From an uncultured Candidatus Saccharibacteria bacterium (GTDB lineage: Bacteria; Patescibacteriota; Minisyncoccia; Phycocordibacterales; UBA1006): DNA of 64,000 bases. The stretch covers positions 73 to 64,072 of the forward strand of contig CAZUGR010000001.1 in NCBI GenBank assembly GCA_964620145.1. Direction: 5' to 3'. Below are positions 57,278 through 63,806 of the stretch, in pieces. The notes below the pieces were generated by a model, which ran no database searches, was not told the origin of the DNA, and saw only the letters and a list, made by a program, of their open reading frames with translations. Made by a program: the position numbers and the translations under genes. How positions within the stretch are numbered: the stretch's first letter is position 1; every line of letters begins with the position of its first letter.

Positions 57278-58348
57278 TTATTTTTGTTCTTCTAACCAAT
57301 CAAATACGGCAGTGTTGGTGAGAATTTGAGTTACATAATTAACTACATTTTCTTTTTGAATTGATTCTTGTGAATACATTTCCATGAGTTTTGCAACTTC
57401 GGTATCAATTTTTTCTTGATCAGCTTTGATAGTGAATTCTTCTGCAATTTTTTCAAGAGTGAGTTGCATGCGAACTCTTTTTTCTGCTTGTTCTCGCCAT
57501 TCATTTTTCATATCTTCAATTTTCTTTCCGATATGATTCAGGTATTCATCAATCTTCATTCCGTTCATGGCGAGGTCATGTTTAAATTGTTCAAGCATTT
57601 TTTCAAGTTCAAAATCTACAATACTTGCTGGAATATCATATTCACCTTTTGCAATGATGGCTTCAATGATGGCAATGCGACGTTTTTCATGTTCGTTTGC
57701 TTGCTTTTCTTTTTTCATATTTTCTTGTAATTGTTTTTTGAAATCTGCAACATCGGCAAATTCACCAAGAGTTTTTACATATTCATCAGTGAGTTCTGGT
57801 AATTGATCGTCTGGAATATTTTGATGATTATGATCGTGGTGTTCTACATCGTCGTCATGCATTTTTTGATGAGCTCGCATTTGTCGGATTTCTCGAATTG
57901 CATTTTCAATTTCTTGATCAGAAATTTCAGAGGTGATAATTTCCTTGTTATTTTCTTTAGCAATTGCAACTACATCAGAAATTGTAATCGTTGGAAGTAC
58001 GTCAGTAGTAATCACATATTCAATATCGTTTTCAGGTGCCATTTTGGTAATATTGATTTCAGGGCGACTGATTGGTTGAATTGCTGATCTTTCAACGATT
58101 GTTGGATATGATTCGGTAAGTGCTCGATCTGCCATTTCTGCAAGAAGTCCCATTTCTCCGATTCGTTCAAAGATTTTTGATTCTGGAACGTGACCTTTGC
58201 GGAATCCGTCAATTTCCATGGTTTCTTTTAATTCTTTGAGTACCTGCGATCGAAAAGTGGTAACTTCTGCAATTGGGATAGTTACGGTAATTTCTACACG
58301 ACTATTAGGAAGTTTATTTGTTTTTGTAGTGATATTTGCTGTATTCAT
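57278..58348 (-). CDS. tig: Trigger factor
   Basis: 356 aa from the ATG at 58348. N-terminal ribosome-binding region (GFRKGHVP motif). Sits upstream of clpP as in many bacteria. The PPIase domain appears reduced. Confidence 0.8.
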   Translation of the reverse strand: MNTANITTKTNKLPNSRVEITVTIPIAEVTTFRSQVLKELKETMEIDGFRKGHVPESKIFERIGEMGLLAEMADRALTESYPTIVERSAIQPISRPEINITKMAPENDIEYVITTDVLPTITISDVVAIAKENNKEIITSEISDQEIENAIREIRQMRAHQKMHDDDVEHHDHNHQNIPDDQLPELTDEYVKTLGEFADVADFKKQLQENMKKEKQANEHEKRRIAIIEAIIAKGEYDIPASIVDFELEKMLEQFKHDLAMNGMKIDEYLNHIGKKIEDMKNEWREQAEKRVRMQLTLEKIAEEFTIKADQEKIDTEVAKLMEMYSQESIQKENVVNYVTQILTNTAVFDWLEEQK

Positions 58349-58528
58349 GTTTGTTACCTTACCAGAAAAAAGCAATAAATGCAAAAAATAATGCCTCAAT
58401 AGTTGACTTTATGTTAAAAAATGGTATTTTCAATTTTAAGTGTGTTTTTTGTCAATTAATTAGTTTGGTGGATAGAGAATTTATTAAAAAATAATCAATT
58501 TTTTGTTCACCAAATTAATTTTAAATAA

Positions 58529-60760
58529 ATGAAAAAAATTTTTACCGCAATGATTCTATTGATAACAATAGGTTTTGCAAATGCGCAAAAGAATGGTTTC
58601 TATGAAACTGATTCTGTATTTTTCGAGGTTACATGGAATATTCCAAATAATCATCAAGTCATGTATTCAGTAAATCAATTCACTGAAAGTAGTTACAAAA
58701 ATTATATCCAAGGTTTTTGGTTGTATAATAACCGTTCCCAAGAAGAAAATACTTGGGAAAATAATTTATATGCAGATGAACCTTGTTATAGTTTTGATTC
58801 ACATCTATTAAAAGGTAATCTAAATAAAGTAAATACAATTAGAGTTCAGCTAATTGATACTATTGAAAACAAAATCAAAAAAGATTCTATCTACATTATT
58901 GGATTTGGCAAGAATCCTCATAATCATTATGTATTGTTTGCAACTATTGATTCAAGCGACCACGCAGAAGTTTTTCAGAATTATAATGATGATATTAAGA
59001 AACGAGTCTGGTTACACATTTTAAAACCTGATGGAACTTTTGAGATCAGTCAGCCGGTAGAATTTGATATTGCTGCTGGAAGCTCTGCTTGTTTACCCAA
59101 CAAGGGTGTTGCATTTAAGGCCACCAAAGATAGTCCTATCAATGGGCCAAATAATTTTAAGACAAGTATTTTTTCCAAAGATTACAAAGAAGAAATCAAG
59201 AAAATAAAAATGCGTGTTGGTGGTTCTGGGCAAAATGGTTCTTTTGGTATTAATGAAATTTGCTTACGCATTATTGATTATCCAGATTGGAAGATTGGTG
59301 GCGTACGAAACACTGTGGGAACTTGGTATTTGAACGGTTCGTATTGGTCGCTCGGATTTCCACAGGTGAAACCCAACGAGCGATATATTGCCGAAGAATA
59401 TAGTATTCATAAAGATTCTGTAGATATTATTTATCCAATTCCATTCAATATTTATTTTGATACAATGTATGCAGGTAGTGAGGATGGCATCAGGGGGAAT
59501 TTTATAGTATTTGAACCAGCAACTGCACAGATGTTGGGTTACCCTGATATTGTATTTTTCGCAGGTAACCAAGTCATTGATAACTTGGCAATTATTCGAG
59601 ATCCTGATGGAAGGAAAAGAGTCGTTGCCAATGCAGAAGAAGGAACAGCTATACATATCCAACCTATTTTCCAGTCATTGACAGATTTACAGGCAGACAC
59701 TGTTTCCGATCATTATCATACGATTGATTCGTTGATAGATTTGGGCAGTTGGTTGCGATATCTATGCTTGATACATTATTTCGGAATGACTGATGTGATT
59801 TCTAATAATGTGAGCATTGGATTAAGTTACCGACACAAACCTTTTATTTTGATGGAAGATTTCGATGGGGTTCCGAGCTCCTATAATAATTGGGATACTG
59901 AAATAGCAAACAATGATGATTCTTATTTTGGGATTATGCATGAGATAATTCAAAACATAATTCTAAAATCTCCGAAATGCAGAGACCGAATGATGCTCGT
60001 ATATCAGGATATGTTGAATACTGGATTATTGCCCAGTAGAACAGTTCCTATTGTTGAGGATATGATTGATGAACTAATGCCTGAATATGGTTATTACTAT
60101 CAATCGTGGGGAGGTTACCCTAATGGTGGAATCGACTCAACTAGTCAAAAAAATATGCTAGAAAATTTCAAGTACTTTTTAGAATCAAGACCTAATATTT
60201 CTGCACAACTACTTACTGATAGGTGGCAACCAAAAGATAGTTTTAATATTACGGATAAAAAAACAATAACTGTAATCTTCGACTCTATTCCTGAAAATAG
60301 TGTTCAGTTAAAGTTGAATAGTTTAAATTTAGATTCAAATTTTATAGGTTTATATTTTCCAAAACCAGATTTACAAATTTCTTATACTGTTTCGCCAGAA
60401 TACAATATTCTTATTAAAGAATATCCTGATTCTTCTAATAATTTCAATTTGTCTTGCGATTCAAATCTTACGATTACTTTTGTGTTGAGAGAAAAGATAG
60501 TAAGTAATATATCAAAAAATATTTTTGAAAATAAAATAAAGATATCTCCAAATCCTGTTAATGATATTTTCACTATAAAAAATATTAATCAAGAAAAATA
60601 TTCTATTGAAATTTTTAATACAAATGGAGTAAAAATATTTTCACAAAAAGAAAATATTTTTGAAACGCATATTGATGTGAGTAGTTTTGTAAAAGGTATG
60701 TATGTGGTAGTAATACGTACTACTCATGATCAATTGAGTAAGAAAATTTTAAAATTCTAG
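58529..60760 (+). CDS. Secreted CotH-like protein with a T9SS (Por) type A C-terminal sorting domain
   Basis: 743 aa. Bacteroidota-style signal peptide MKKIFTAMILLITIGFANAQ. CotH-like LRYLCLIHYFGMTDVISNN...MEDFDG. C-terminal KISPNPVNDIFTIKNI...IEIFNTNGVKIF...IDVSSFVKGMYVVVIRT...KKILKF matches the Por_Secre_tail pattern. Confidence 0.6.
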   Translation: MKKIFTAMILLITIGFANAQKNGFYETDSVFFEVTWNIPNNHQVMYSVNQFTESSYKNYIQGFWLYNNRSQEENTWENNLYADEPCYSFDSHLLKGNLNKVNTIRVQLIDTIENKIKKDSIYIIGFGKNPHNHYVLFATIDSSDHAEVFQNYNDDIKKRVWLHILKPDGTFEISQPVEFDIAAGSSACLPNKGVAFKATKDSPINGPNNFKTSIFSKDYKEEIKKIKMRVGGSGQNGSFGINEICLRIIDYPDWKIGGVRNTVGTWYLNGSYWSLGFPQVKPNERYIAEEYSIHKDSVDIIYPIPFNIYFDTMYAGSEDGIRGNFIVFEPATAQMLGYPDIVFFAGNQVIDNLAIIRDPDGRKRVVANAEEGTAIHIQPIFQSLTDLQADTVSDHYHTIDSLIDLGSWLRYLCLIHYFGMTDVISNNVSIGLSYRHKPFILMEDFDGVPSSYNNWDTEIANNDDSYFGIMHEIIQNIILKSPKCRDRMMLVYQDMLNTGLLPSRTVPIVEDMIDELMPEYGYYYQSWGGYPNGGIDSTSQKNMLENFKYFLESRPNISAQLLTDRWQPKDSFNITDKKTITVIFDSIPENSVQLKLNSLNLDSNFIGLYFPKPDLQISYTVSPEYNILIKEYPDSSNNFNLSCDSNLTITFVLREKIVSNISKNIFENKIKISPNPVNDIFTIKNINQEKYSIEIFNTNGVKIFSQKENIFETHIDVSSFVKGMYVVVIRTTHDQLSKKILKF

Positions 60761-60865
60761 ATACTCATGGAGTATCAAACCCCTTTTCCGAAAGGGGTTT
60801 TTGTTTACGGAATTTTTTAATCAGGTATACTAGAGGTATTATTAGTAACATTAAATATAATATTT

Positions 60866-61315
60866 ATGAAAAAACCACAAAAATCATTCCATGCGTCTTG
60901 GAGGCATTGGGGATTGCTCGTATTGCGAATAACGCTCGGAGGAATTTTCCTCTACCATGGAATGGTGAAACTCACCGATATGACGCAGACGATTACCTCA
61001 TTCGCATCACTTGGATTCTCTCCTTTTTGGGCATGGATTACTGCGATTGCACAGGCACTCGGTGGACTCTTCGTTTTGATTGGATATTTCACGCGACAGG
61101 CATCATTCGTTCTTGCGATTGTTATGGTAGTTGCTGCATATTCTGTTTCGGGGAACGGTTGGAAATCTATGGAGCTTCCTGTAGTACTGTTCGGACTTGC
61201 TACGGGATTGAGTTTGATCGGGTGCGGGCGATACAGTCTCTGTTCGTTCCGTCATCGTAGGCAGTGTAAAGAAAGTGTATGCCAAGAAGGGTGCAGTTGT
61301 TCCTGTTATCAATAA
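60866..61315 (+). CDS. DoxX-family membrane protein with a Cys-rich C-terminal tail
   Basis: 149 aa. LLVLRITLGGIFLYHG...ALGGLFVLIGYFTR...GRYSL is DoxX-like. The tail is CSFRHRRQCKESVCQEGCSCSCYQ. Visibly higher GC than its surroundings. Confidence 0.7.
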   Translation: MKKPQKSFHASWRHWGLLVLRITLGGIFLYHGMVKLTDMTQTITSFASLGFSPFWAWITAIAQALGGLFVLIGYFTRQASFVLAIVMVVAAYSVSGNGWKSMELPVVLFGLATGLSLIGCGRYSLCSFRHRRQCKESVCQEGCSCSCYQ

Positions 61316-61433
61316 TAAAACACCTCCTAGGAGGTGTTTTATTATTGATTCAGAAATTGTGCATTATTCATTCGTGATGTATGCTCGAAATTTTTTGAAA
61401 ATCCGCAATGGGTATTCCCTCTCTGGAAATTGA

Positions 61434-61928
61434 TTACTCTCCGAAAATAACAGGAGTAATAAGCTCATCTCGTTCTGGGTTGAATGGTGCCTCACCATCA
61501 GATGGATCGTTTTTCACGAAACGGATTGATCCTGTACCTGTATAGTCGAATGATGCAGGAAGTGTAGCAGTGAACCTGACACTCTGGGTAGTCATCCAGT
61601 CTTCATTGGTTTTCGCGGTTACGGTTGTGAAAATTTCGTTCTCTGCAGTACGGAGTTCAACAGGGAAATTCCCTTTGAAGAAATAGTAGTTCGGAGCAGT
61701 CCCCGTGATAATTTGTTCTGGTGAGACGGTGTCGTTCGGTTGGAGATCGTTGATGAAAATAATCGCGGTTGGGGGATTTTGTACTATTGGTTGAGCGTCT
61801 GATGATGGTGTCGGTGCGACGGTTCGCTTGGGTAAAAAGATGAGCGCAATGAACGCGAAAACGAACGTAACCAGTGCGAGTCCGAGAATGCCGATCCGAT
61901 GATGATGTTGTTCGATGATTTTTCTCAT
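61434..61928 (-). CDS. Membrane-anchored protein with a Gmad2-like Ig-fold domain
   Basis: 164 aa from the ATG at 61928. TM ILGLALVTFVFAFIALIFL. ITGTAPNYYFFKGNFPVEL resembles Gmad2-type domains. Confidence 0.45.
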   Translation of the reverse strand: MRKIIEQHHHRIGILGLALVTFVFAFIALIFLPKRTVAPTPSSDAQPIVQNPPTAIIFINDLQPNDTVSPEQIITGTAPNYYFFKGNFPVELRTAENEIFTTVTAKTNEDWMTTQSVRFTATLPASFDYTGTGSIRFVKNDPSDGEAPFNPERDELITPVIFGE

Positions 61929-61973
61929 ATATATAGCGTACAGTAATCCCGAGAAAAACACAACAGAAACGCC

Positions 61974-62522
61974 CTAGGCGTTTCTGTTCATTCCATAGTT
62001 CGCATCGTAGAGTGCAATTGATTCATTAATATCTGCAATTGCTTGATTTTTACCTGCAATTCCATTGATGGTTACAGTACCTTTTTCACCTTTTTTGAGT
62101 TCTTTGTATGTTTCCCAAAAATGAGTGAATTCTTTGAGGGTATGTTTGTTAATATCTGACAAGTCTTGGAAATCTTCCCATCTCTTGTCATCAATAGGAA
62201 CAGTAATAATTTTTGCATCACTGTCTCCTGTATCAGTCATGTCCATCACAGCAATCGGTCGCACGGTTACCAGCACTCCTGGATGCAGTGGATAAGTGGT
62301 GAGAACAATAACATCGAGAGGATCTCCATCATGCCACAATGTTTGTGGAACGAATCCATAATCGAACGGATAGGGTGCAGAACTGTAGTTAGCTCGGTCG
62401 AGTTTAATCAATCCCGTTTCTTTGTCGATTTCGTATTTGTTGTGAGATCCTTTTGGAATTTCAATAATAACATTCAATGCTTCTGGAGTTCCTCGAGGAA
62501 TATCATGCCATAAATCAGTCAT
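61974..62522 (-). CDS. ppa: Family I inorganic pyrophosphatase
   Basis: 182 aa. EIPKGSHNKYE, YPFDYGFVPQT, DGDPLDVIVL motifs. Confidence 0.95.
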   Translation of the reverse strand: MTDLWHDIPRGTPEALNVIIEIPKGSHNKYEIDKETGLIKLDRANYSSAPYPFDYGFVPQTLWHDGDPLDVIVLTTYPLHPGVLVTVRPIAVMDMTDTGDSDAKIITVPIDDKRWEDFQDLSDINKHTLKEFTHFWETYKELKKGEKGTVTINGIAGKNQAIADINESIALYDANYGMNRNA

Positions 62523-62561
62523 AGATGAGTTGTGTATTATTTTGATAAATGATGAACAAGA

Positions 62562-63806
62562 TTATTCTTGTTCTGGAGTATCTCCGGTTAATTCTGCTTC
62601 ATTCTGTACAAGGTCAGCCAATGCGATAAAATCATCTTCATCGCCTGTCGGGTCTCCGTTCTCGTCTACTTCTTCACCTTTGATGCCTTTGATATCAATT
62701 TTCCAATTGGTGAGTCGTGCAGCAAGTCGAACATTTTGCCCAGATTTTCCAATAGCCAGAGAGAGTTGATTATCAGCAACTTCAACACTTGCCATGTGCT
62801 CTGCTTCGTCAATAGTAATATTAACTACGCGAGCTGGTGCGAGTGAATTTGCGATAAATTCAGAAATAATCGGTGACCAGGGAATGATGTCGATGTTTTC
62901 CCCGTGGAGTTCGTCTTTGATTGTTTGCACACGAACACCTCGTTGTCCTACACATGCCCCAATTGGATCAACACTTTCATCGTTTGACCAAACAGCTATT
63001 TTTGATCGAGAGCCGGCTTCTCGTGATACAGATTTAATCTCAACCGTACCGCTTGCAACCTCGGGAGACTCTTGGATGAATAATTGAGTAATCATCTGTG
63101 GATGTTTTCGAGAGAGTCGCAATGTTACTCCACGTGGAGTTTCGTCAATTGCATAGAGATATGCCTTGATGCGATCACCTGGCTTCCATGTTTCTCCTGG
63201 GATTTGTTCTGTTGTATGGAGAATTCCTGTTGCTCGATAGAATTCAATAAAGATATTTCCTCGTTCGATAGTTTGGATAATACCACTCATTAGTGTTCCT
63301 TGCTTGTCAGTATATTCTCGTGCGATGGTTCCTTTTTCTGCTTCACGGAGTCGTTGCATGATAACTTGTTTTGCGGTTTGTGCTGCAATTCTTCCGAATT
63401 CTGCGTCAGGTGGATCGAGAGGGAAAATCATTTCTTGGCCAACTTCTGCATCACTTTTCATGATTTTTGCATTCTGGATGTACATGTGTTTTTCCTCGTC
63501 GAATCGTGGAATGACTTCTTCGCCTTCTGCTGGTTCTGGGTCTTGGAATCCTTCGGCGATTTGTTCTTCGGTGAGTGCAGGTCGTACAGTATTTTCATCA
63601 ACGATGAGTTTTACTTGAGAAAAATCAACATCACCTGTTTCAAGGTTGAATACAGAACGGATTACTTGTCCTCGTTTTCCATGATCTCTCTTATATGCTG
63701 CGGCGAGAGCTTGTTCAATAGCATCAATAATAGCTGCTTGGGGGATTTTTTTCTCTTGTTCGATTTGTTCAAGAGTGGATTTTAAAATTTTTAGATCGAA
63801 TAACAT
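62562..63806 (-). CDS. nusA: Transcription termination/antitermination factor NusA
   Basis: 414 aa. N-terminal domain, S1 domain, two KH domains (GACVGQRGVRVQ; AIGKSGQNVRLAARL), and an acidic tail. Confidence 0.9.
   Translation of the reverse strand: MLFDLKILKSTLEQIEQEKKIPQAAIIDAIEQALAAAYKRDHGKRGQVIRSVFNLETGDVDFSQVKLIVDENTVRPALTEEQIAEGFQDPEPAEGEEVIPRFDEEKHMYIQNAKIMKSDAEVGQEMIFPLDPPDAEFGRIAAQTAKQVIMQRLREAEKGTIAREYTDKQGTLMSGIIQTIERGNIFIEFYRATGILHTTEQIPGETWKPGDRIKAYLYAIDETPRGVTLRLSRKHPQMITQLFIQESPEVASGTVEIKSVSREAGSRSKIAVWSNDESVDPIGACVGQRGVRVQTIKDELHGENIDIIPWSPIISEFIANSLAPARVVNITIDEAEHMASVEVADNQLSLAIGKSGQNVRLAARLTNWKIDIKGIKGEEVDENGDPTGDEDDFIALADLVQNEAELTGDTPEQE

Follow-up and report, generated by a model that had tools for sequence, protein, structure and literature searches.

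Two groups of described proteins are close to the gene reported here. Cargo of the type IX secretion system (T9SS) with a type A C-terminal sorting domain (CTD), such as RemA and endonuclease I of F. johnsoniae (CTDs in 8gl6 and 8glk) and mirolase of T. forsythia (CTD in 8qb1), has a shared architecture, in which a signal peptide is followed by functional domains, an Ig-like spacer, a flexible linker and a seven-stranded CTD of about 75 residues with PNP, GxY and KxxK motifs. The CotH atypical kinases (5jd9/5jda) belong to the spore coat of B. subtilis and B. cereus, and D228 and D251 are needed for kinase activity of B. subtilis CotH (PMC7821199). The gene that we describe is a 743-aa open reading frame (ORF) of an uncultured Candidatus Saccharibacteria bacterium, a member of the candidate phyla radiation (CPR). 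It lies in a stretch of 64,000 nucleotides (the window), which corresponds to G000:C1:73-64072, with G000 as our label for the source genome bin. Its product has all the elements of type A cargo, including the three CTD motifs, and the fold of CotH kinases. The locus is thus a T9SS type A cargo architecture in a CPR lineage that lacks a T9SS. The reading that we favour, and regard as fairly probable, is that of a genuine Patescibacteria gene from a recombining family that was exchanged with low-GC Chitinophagales and inserted at a tig-doxX hotspot, with the tag kept as a surface module. The gene and the parts of its product are located in the window as follows.

58529..60760, plus strand: 743-aa ORF for a predicted secreted CotH-type kinase with a T9SS type A CTD (domain matches, model, Foldseek).
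58529..58585, plus strand: predicted Sec-type signal peptide, aa 1-19, with MKK, a hydrophobic core and ANA followed by Q (sequence inspection, family N-termini).
58586..58948, plus strand: N-terminal beta-rich domain, about aa 20-140 (secondary structure of the model).
58949..60238, plus strand: CotH-like atypical kinase core, about aa 141-570 (Foldseek matches to 5jda/5jd9, Pfam CotH).
59792-59794, plus strand: putative catalytic Asp, D422 (profile alignment to B. cereus CotH).
59807-59809, plus strand: Asn, N427 (same alignment).
59858-59860, plus strand: putative metal-binding Asp, D444 (same alignment).
60251..60493, plus strand: Ig-like beta-sandwich spacer, about aa 575-655 (secondary structure of the model).
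60494..60532, plus strand: flexible linker before the CTD, about aa 656-668, pLDDT below 50 (model).
60533..60757, plus strand: T9SS type A CTD, a seven-stranded beta-sandwich with motifs PNP, GMY and KKILKF (HMMs, structure match, alignment).

An original prediction made from the sequence alone had proposed a 743-aa ORF with a type A sorting domain at its end and a CotH-like middle part. The N- and C-termini that it quoted match the start and end of the ORF exactly, and HMM searches agreed with both domain assignments. PF18962 (Por_Secre_tail) matched aa 672-740 (E 8.7e-13, 48.8 bits, Pfam cut-off 27) and TIGR04183 matched aa 672-742 of 743 (E 1.3e-11, 44.3 bits, NCBIfam cut-off 23), so that both models scored above their curated cut-offs at the extreme C-terminus. 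The CotH profile PF08757 matched aa 377-555 above its cut-off of 23.8 (E 3e-10, 40.6 bits), over profile positions 145-319 of 322 only. No family match was found for the N-terminal beta-rich domain (about aa 20-140).

An AlphaFold2 model calculated from 22 homologs (pLDDT 84.6, pTM 0.78) consists, in order, of a signal helix, a beta-rich N-domain, a mixed alpha/beta core, an Ig-like sandwich, a disordered linker (aa 657-667) and a seven-stranded terminal sandwich (aa 670-742). In a Foldseek search of the PDB, the core matched the B. cereus CotH kinase 5jda (E 1.9e-10, probability 1.00, TM 0.71 on the target). The tail matched the RemA CTD in the translocon complex 8gl6_D (TM 0.82, rmsd 1.8 A) and the mirolase CTD 8qb1 (TM 0.69-0.73), and the CTD was also linked to 8glk_D by phmmer (E 1.4e-4).

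The family profile aligns MTD(422)VISNN(427) to the catalytic loop NFDGFVHN of B. cereus CotH and ED(444)FD to its metal site WDYD. Because of this alignment, the stretch that had been spotted by eye as CotH-like can be identified as the CotH catalytic loop. Residues N427, D444 and D446 are invariant among 22 family members, and D422 is nearly so. D422 and D444 correspond to D228 and D251 of the B. subtilis enzyme, according to a numbering offset of +4 between the B. cereus and B. subtilis proteins that is our own count. The kinase core thus looks catalytically competent from its sequence. The likeness to CotH kinases comprises the same fold and the aligned catalytic Asp, Asn and metal-binding Asp, at a sequence identity of only about 10% and with a Pfam model that covers the C-lobe only. 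In contrast to CotH kinases, the window protein has an extra N-terminal beta domain, and it combines a T9SS tag with predicted export rather than action in a spore coat.

The clearest difference from T9SS cargo is in the genome that encodes the protein, which gave no match to models of SprA, PorV, PorU, GldK, GldM or BamA. The five T9SS core models (SprA, TIGR04189; PorV, NF033710; PorU, NF033707; GldM, TIGR03517; GldK, TIGR03525) did not match anything in G000 (96% complete) or in its relatives G002, G005 and G017 (97-98% complete). BamA (TIGR03303) was not found in these four CPR genomes either; 7 of 14 control genomes had it, as did G061. All six models gave strong matches in G061, which served as positive control and is a Chitinophagales genome of 2.8 Mb. 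Across the whole CPR family, none of 55 genomes had a match to SprA or PorV. The absence of a visible T9SS component, noted previously for the window, therefore extends to whole genomes, and in its own cell the tag cannot serve for export by a T9SS. We also considered and rejected the idea that the organism is a bacterium of the Fibrobacteres-Chlorobi-Bacteroidetes (FCB) group with a full T9SS, on the grounds of the missing T9SS core and BamA matches and the patescibacterial relatives of the neighbouring RNase Y.

The tag might still be read in its own cell if the organism had an unrecognised outer layer and a divergent secretion system. A tag known only for T9SS export is strongly retained here, which would fit this idea, as would the large share of genes in these genomes without any family match. 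Against it stand the negative searches for five T9SS core families and BamA in four near-complete genomes and for SprA and PorV across the family; a protein as large as SprA (2,300 residues) should not easily escape notice in a genome of 0.7 Mb. We consider a divergent system very improbable.

The bin G000 comprises 919,615 b in 130 contigs. Half of these, 65 contigs with 203 kb in total, exceed 45% G+C, and many are at 65-72% (examples of the group are C45, C55, C62 and C89-C130). They are clearly contamination, foreign to a CPR genome of 33-37% GC. The low-GC part of the bin amounts to 717 kb, and the real G000 genome is a Patescibacteria genome of about 0.72 Mb (Paceibacteria-like). Genome sizes of relatives at the genus, family and order level are about 0.4-1.5 Mb. 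The contig that carries the gene is 67 kb long with 33.5% GC (window: 33% G+C), and the RNase Y encoded next door has thousands of close relatives, among which the organism-named ones are from 'Patescibacteria group bacterium' and 'Candidatus Pacebacteria bacterium'. In the related contig L026, the gene for ribosomal protein L15 follows directly after that for S5, with L30 missing between them. A crude count on the low-GC contigs of G000 identified a Shine-Dalgarno-like motif within 18 nt upstream of the first ATG in only 4% of 369 ORFs of at least 200 aa, and the lineage seems to start translation largely without Shine-Dalgarno pairing. The missing Shine-Dalgarno motif was for this reason rejected as a mark of Bacteroidota origin.

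Contamination of the bin, with its 65 high-GC contigs and 203 kb, raises the question of an artefact of assembly or binning, that is, of a Bacteroidota fragment misjoined into a CPR contig. A chimeric join had been offered as an alternative in the original prediction. The gene is situated 58.5 kb into the 67-kb contig, with native backbone genes in the conserved genus order on both sides. It does not share any 31-mers with the Bacteroidota copies on contigs L023 and L036, so that a chimera made by a k-mer assembler is unlikely. Moreover, independent assemblies have family members between CPR housekeeping genes, related copies are present on at least eight independent CPR contigs, and CTD genes occur on large or closed CPR contigs. 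The contaminant contigs have 65-72% GC, as opposed to 30% GC in Chitinophagales. Composition adds little here, as donor and recipient are both at about 30-33% GC: the codon-usage distance of the gene is at the 88th percentile, its GC3 is 0.246 (median 0.23), and its tetranucleotide score deviates by 1.6 SD towards Bacteroidota. We therefore give hardly any weight to an artefact.

CTD-tagged proteins are not confined to this gene. G000 encodes four TIGR04183 proteins, the other three being a PA14 protein, an InlB-repeat/PKD protein and an M43 peptidase with five InlB-type repeats. TIGR04183 was matched in 31 of 36 searched genomes of the CPR family of G000, with 1-6 copies each, and these tagged genomes span 16 genera and are streamlined (0.4-0.9 Mb). 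In other families of the same order the model matched 2 of 24 genomes, and in an even sample of the phylum 17 of 400 (about 4%), including a closed one-contig genome with four matches. The best CPR score was 62.9 bits, compared with 49.5 for G061, which has 30 CTD matches. The M43-CTD metallopeptidase (967 aa) is encoded at G000 C1:64218-67118, beyond the end of the window and about 400 nt past nusA, and has positional counterparts in the same neighbourhood in G001, G003 and G005. Its close relatives (74-75% identity) have the same architecture, and named Bacteroidota M43 proteases are 30-36% identical. Judging from these comparisons, the M43-CTD protein is an old resident of the CPR lineage. 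A literature search for T9SS tags in CPR did not return any relevant paper.

The CotH-like subfamily itself is small. A word-indexed search found 23 relatives among 5.8 billion cluster representatives, and an exhaustive profile search of 1.84 billion gave 36 at E<=1e-30, beyond which the matches fell off sharply to generic CotH proteins with a CTD. An exact match to the window protein was not present in the contig index. Copies were assigned to CPR or Bacteroidota by their neighbouring genes and, for some Bacteroidota copies, by National Center for Biotechnology Information (NCBI) labels. The CPR copies are P0006, P0007, P0009 (G002, beside tig), P0010, P0014, those of G001, G005 and G006 and two in G009; their flanking housekeeping genes are 83-91% identical to those of G000. 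P0010 and the G005 copy follow the AlaRS gene, and P0014 and the G001 copy follow the EF-G gene. Overall, the family occupies at least four loci in the CPR genus. In G000, no further copies or fragments of the family were found beyond shared C-terminal modules. Two G000 contigs, C4 (~39599) and C14 (~14613), end at or after the EF-G and AlaRS genes, where genus relatives hold CotH-CTD paralogs; the breaks suggest variable or repeated sequence that was not resolved by the assembler.

On the Bacteroidota side, P0005 (including the L010 and G061 versions) is found on nine contigs between cytochrome oxidase genes and DUF4159, and members of its cluster carry the NCBI label 'Chitinophagales'. P0003 adjoins a gene for an outer-membrane barrel protein, P0015 adjoins OEP/ACR efflux genes and P0019 adjoins DUF4290; P0020, P0022 and P0023 are Chitinophagales by NCBI label. 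In the family to which G061 belongs, only 4 of 45 genomes contained a homolog, two of these with in-frame stops, and the type with about 70% identity was present in G061 only, so that the gene is patchy on the Bacteroidota side as well. A decayed Chitinophagales copy (G519:C9:180682-182580) has 7 in-frame stops, and a short remnant in a Chitinophagales relative of G061 (G517:C1:133043-133270) has 5.

The closest relatives of the window gene (69-75% identity) are found on Chitinophagales contigs, beside cytochrome oxidase or outer-membrane genes. In a maximum-likelihood tree of 28 rows, the window gene falls into a clade with P0005, P0003, P0002 and P0004 (support 100/100), whose successive sisters are the CPR copies P0006 (98/94) and P0007 (98/95), and then a clade of nine copies, five from CPR contigs and four unclassified. 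A separate deep clade contains only unclassified copies and copies in Bacteroidota context, most of them without a recognisable CTD. In approximately unbiased (AU) tests on groups that were chosen with the tree at hand, monophyly of all Bacteroidota-context rows was rejected (p-AU 5e-5), as was a grouping of the window gene with P0006 and P0007 (p-AU 3e-4). The tree needs at least two transfers between the phyla. Gene flow between the CPR genus and Chitinophagales looks to have been two-way, because Chitinophagales copies nest inside CPR copies.

Similarity to the window gene is uneven along its length. P0005 is nearest in the N-terminal half (78%) and again in the tail, and P0002 is nearest in the middle, with 96% amino acid and 96-99% nucleotide identity over aa 326-620. 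On either side of P0002, the sequence of its contig L040 resembles that of the Bacteroidota contig L023 (about 80%); L040 is therefore a Bacteroidota locus that carries a G000-like patch. In L023, the gene is contained in an insert of about 2.4 kb bracketed by a direct repeat of 157 nt (222-378 and 2799-2955, 97% identical), which duplicates the 3' end of an upstream transporter-like gene and looks like the scar of a Campbell-type insertion in the Bacteroidota genome. Flanking repeats were not found at the G000 and G061 loci. At the nucleotide level, the similarity of about 75% to Bacteroidota loci is restricted to the ORF.

The tails have a history of their own. The CTD of the window protein is 48% identical to that of P0005 and 14-34% identical to every other one. 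Its PNP motif is of the PNPxxD type seen in Chitinophagales copies, as compared with PNPTxG or PNPVNS in 9 of 10 CPR copies. P0006 and P0009 have CTDs with about 70% identity on bodies with about 46% identity. Tails have been shuffled between copies.

The position of the gene was analyzed by comparison with other genomes of the genus. The bordering genes and the other features of the region are the following.

57278..58399, minus strand: tig (trigger factor), native backbone, left border of slot A (Pfam; orthologs with 56-84% identity in 9/9 genus genomes).
58403..58430, plus strand: sigma-70-like promoter candidate, TTGACT, 16-nt spacer and TG-TATTTT (from a consensus scan only, which is not functional evidence).
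60777..60810, plus strand: clean intrinsic terminator-like hairpin at 60777-60800 (AAACCCCTTTTCCGAAAGGGGTTT) followed by a T-run (consensus match only).
60866..61315, plus strand: doxX, native backbone, right border of slot A (Pfam; orthologs with 41-45% identity beside tig in G004 and G001).
61434..61961, minus strand: Gmad2-like gene, native backbone, left border of slot B (Pfam, genus comparison).
61974..63806, minus strand: ppa and nusA, native backbone, right border of slot B (Pfam, genus comparison).

The genus backbone reads clpP-tig-doxX-gmad2-ppa-nusA, and its slots A (tig/doxX) and B (gmad2/ppa) hold differing CTD-tagged genes in different species. G000 has the CotH-CTD gene in slot A, and G001, G003 and G005 have the M43-CTD gene in slot B. 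In G002, a different CotH-CTD copy (46% identical) is found beside tig together with other genes; Tig, ClpP and RNase Y are 64%, 84% and 79% identical between G000 and G002. Slot A is empty, with tig directly beside doxX, in G004 and G001; G004 has the bare backbone with both slots empty, and G006 also has no CTD gene here. Because the tig-doxX site is empty in genus relatives, the G000 gene is, by this comparison of gene orders, an insertion in a hotspot for genes of CTD proteins.

Pfam matches agreed with the flanking genes named in the original prediction, tig-clpP on one side and doxX and a Gmad2-like gene on the other. The higher G+C content noted there for the latter pair was also correct (46% and 45%, against 33% in the window; nusA has 42% and ppa 39%). 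A reading of the pair as a foreign patch did not stand, since these four genes are conserved backbone in the genus and their higher GC is thus no mark of foreign DNA. The promoter candidate is inside the tig/CotH-like intergenic region of 129 nt. A perfect 21+21-nt palindrome (ATCAATAATAAAACACCTCCT / AGGAGGTGTTTTATTATTGAT) at window 61308-61349 starts at the 3' end of doxX, faces the convergent gmad2-like gene and is probably a two-way terminator.

As regards the course of the transfers, the family has most likely long been resident in the CPR genus and was passed to Chitinophagales, from where the G000 copy returned. Bacteroidota are over-represented among the gene-transfer partners of Patescibacteria (PMC12455944). 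The earlier proposal of a horizontal acquisition from a Bacteroidota neighbour or host held with respect to the Bacteroidota link, as indicated by the Chitinophagales relatives, the insertion and the P0005-like CTD. It did not hold as a single isolated event, in view of the tagged proteins throughout the CPR family, the several loci in the genus and the apparent two-way flow.

Domain identity, the absence of machinery, the family-wide occurrence of tagged proteins, the phylogeny and the insertion site are the basis of the reading that we favour, and several points weigh against it. For the last transfer, the direction is deduced from the empty site, from CTD identity and from a tail tree with weak support (SH-aLRT 82-86), and the body tree is fitted equally well by two transfers from CPR to Chitinophagales and a move of the G000 copy out of a paralogous locus in CPR. 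Groups for the AU tests were defined only once the tree was known. The G000-like patch of L040 lies on a contig of only 2.4 kb; a k-mer chimera is unlikely here, as the window gene has no 31-mer in common with L023 or L036, but keeps some probability for so short a contig. Nucleotide identity to the Bacteroidota copies is about 75% overall, so that, except for the L040 patch, the exchange was not very recent. The CTD, when G000 is compared with P0006, has an omega of about 1.3, a rough value at saturated dS. An extracellular kinase would need a source of ATP, and the CotH fold might instead serve as an adhesin. Finally, Chitinophagales are a candidate host or close neighbour that is proposed from gene exchange.

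Whether the tag has a function at all is a separate question, and a functionless tag had been part of the original prediction. Such a passenger would have arrived once from a Bacteroidota donor, with a CTD that is not yet eroded. The inserted G000 copy with a CTD closest to that of Chitinophagales is in line with this explanation. So are the CTD being the most divergent part of the protein and its omega of about 1 in the comparison of G000 with P0003 as well as the value for P0006 given above, which are both rough because dS is saturated. However, CTDs diverge fast in true T9SS organisms too. The PNP, GxY and KxxK motifs are kept in all CPR copies, while the rest of the CTD drifts to 25-40% identity, and a functionless tag is therefore unlikely. 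Deep CPR-only clades all keep a scoring CTD with intact motifs, and in pairs of CPR copies omega is 0.2-0.55 (rough values, since dS is saturated in most pairs). It also speaks against a passenger that tagged proteins are carried by 31 of 36 streamlined genomes in 16 genera and that the neighbouring M43-CTD protein is apparently an old resident. We regard the passenger explanation as improbable.

The predicted signal peptide reads MKKIFTAMILLITIGFANA, followed by Q (by inspection), and is conserved across the N-termini of the family; the model has a low-pLDDT helix at aa 2-10 within it. Downstream of the predicted cleavage site, indicated by an arrow, the family pattern is A↓Q(T/V)SHxSGFY, and the Gln directly after the site (window 58583-58588, A↓Q) is kept in nearly all CPR and Bacteroidota copies. 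A Gln at position +1 after cleavage resembles the 'Q-rule' of Bacteroidota. The glutaminyl cyclase model PF05096 had no match in the CPR genomes, nor in the Bacteroidota control, which limits what can be concluded about the Q-rule here.

With regard to function, we infer export and kinase activity, as well as what the tag does and how the cell relates to a host. The signal peptide would route the protein through Sec, and with a single membrane this would place it outside the cell. As there is neither an outer membrane nor a T9SS, Sec alone would be responsible for export; the tag would then not be a secretion signal in its own cell, and must in that case be kept for something else. Our best guess is that it persists as a folded module at the C-terminus that serves adhesion or retention at the surface. 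The protein could act at the interface between the CPR cell and a T9SS-bearing Chitinophagales neighbour or host, and the kinase may phosphorylate surface or matrix targets.

Alternatively, the tag could be used in trans by the machinery of the host. Released CTD proteins would be recognised by the PorV shuttle and the PorU/PorZ attachment complex of a Bacteroidota host and would be bound, or even covalently anchored, at the surface of that cell. In favour of this, CTDs of CPR proteins are fully canonical, with TIGR04183 scores (up to 62.9 bits) that equal or exceed those of G061. Their fold agrees with translocon-bound CTDs, no CPR copy has lost the motifs, and genes have been exchanged with a T9SS-bearing lineage. 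In the known pathway, however, the CTD reaches the T9SS from within the periplasm, whereas use in trans would require engagement of PorV or PorU from outside; the CTD is also present in about 4% of other Patescibacteria. We therefore think that use in trans is unlikely. If true, it would mean that the envelope of the host comes to carry CTD-tagged kinases, proteases and adhesins exported by the CPR cell, and the CTD repertoire of a CPR genome would predict a Bacteroidota host.

For the preferred reading, retention of the tag as a surface module in a family exchanged with Chitinophagales, the new elements are an identified partner lineage (low-GC Chitinophagales), a kinase cargo and an insertion hotspot. 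To our knowledge, hosts are not known for almost all Paceibacteria. Repeated moves of a gene between one CPR genus and one Bacteroidota lineage, for which the evidence includes a scar of insertion in Bacteroidota and, in CPR, an empty site, provide a concrete and testable partner hypothesis. It is a puzzle that streamlined, single-membrane bacteria without T9SS keep a tag for which all known readers are outer-membrane T9SS proteins, and we did not find a discussion of this in the literature searched. A second, T9SS-independent role of the tag or an action on host machinery would, if true, in either case be new biology for a very widespread domain.

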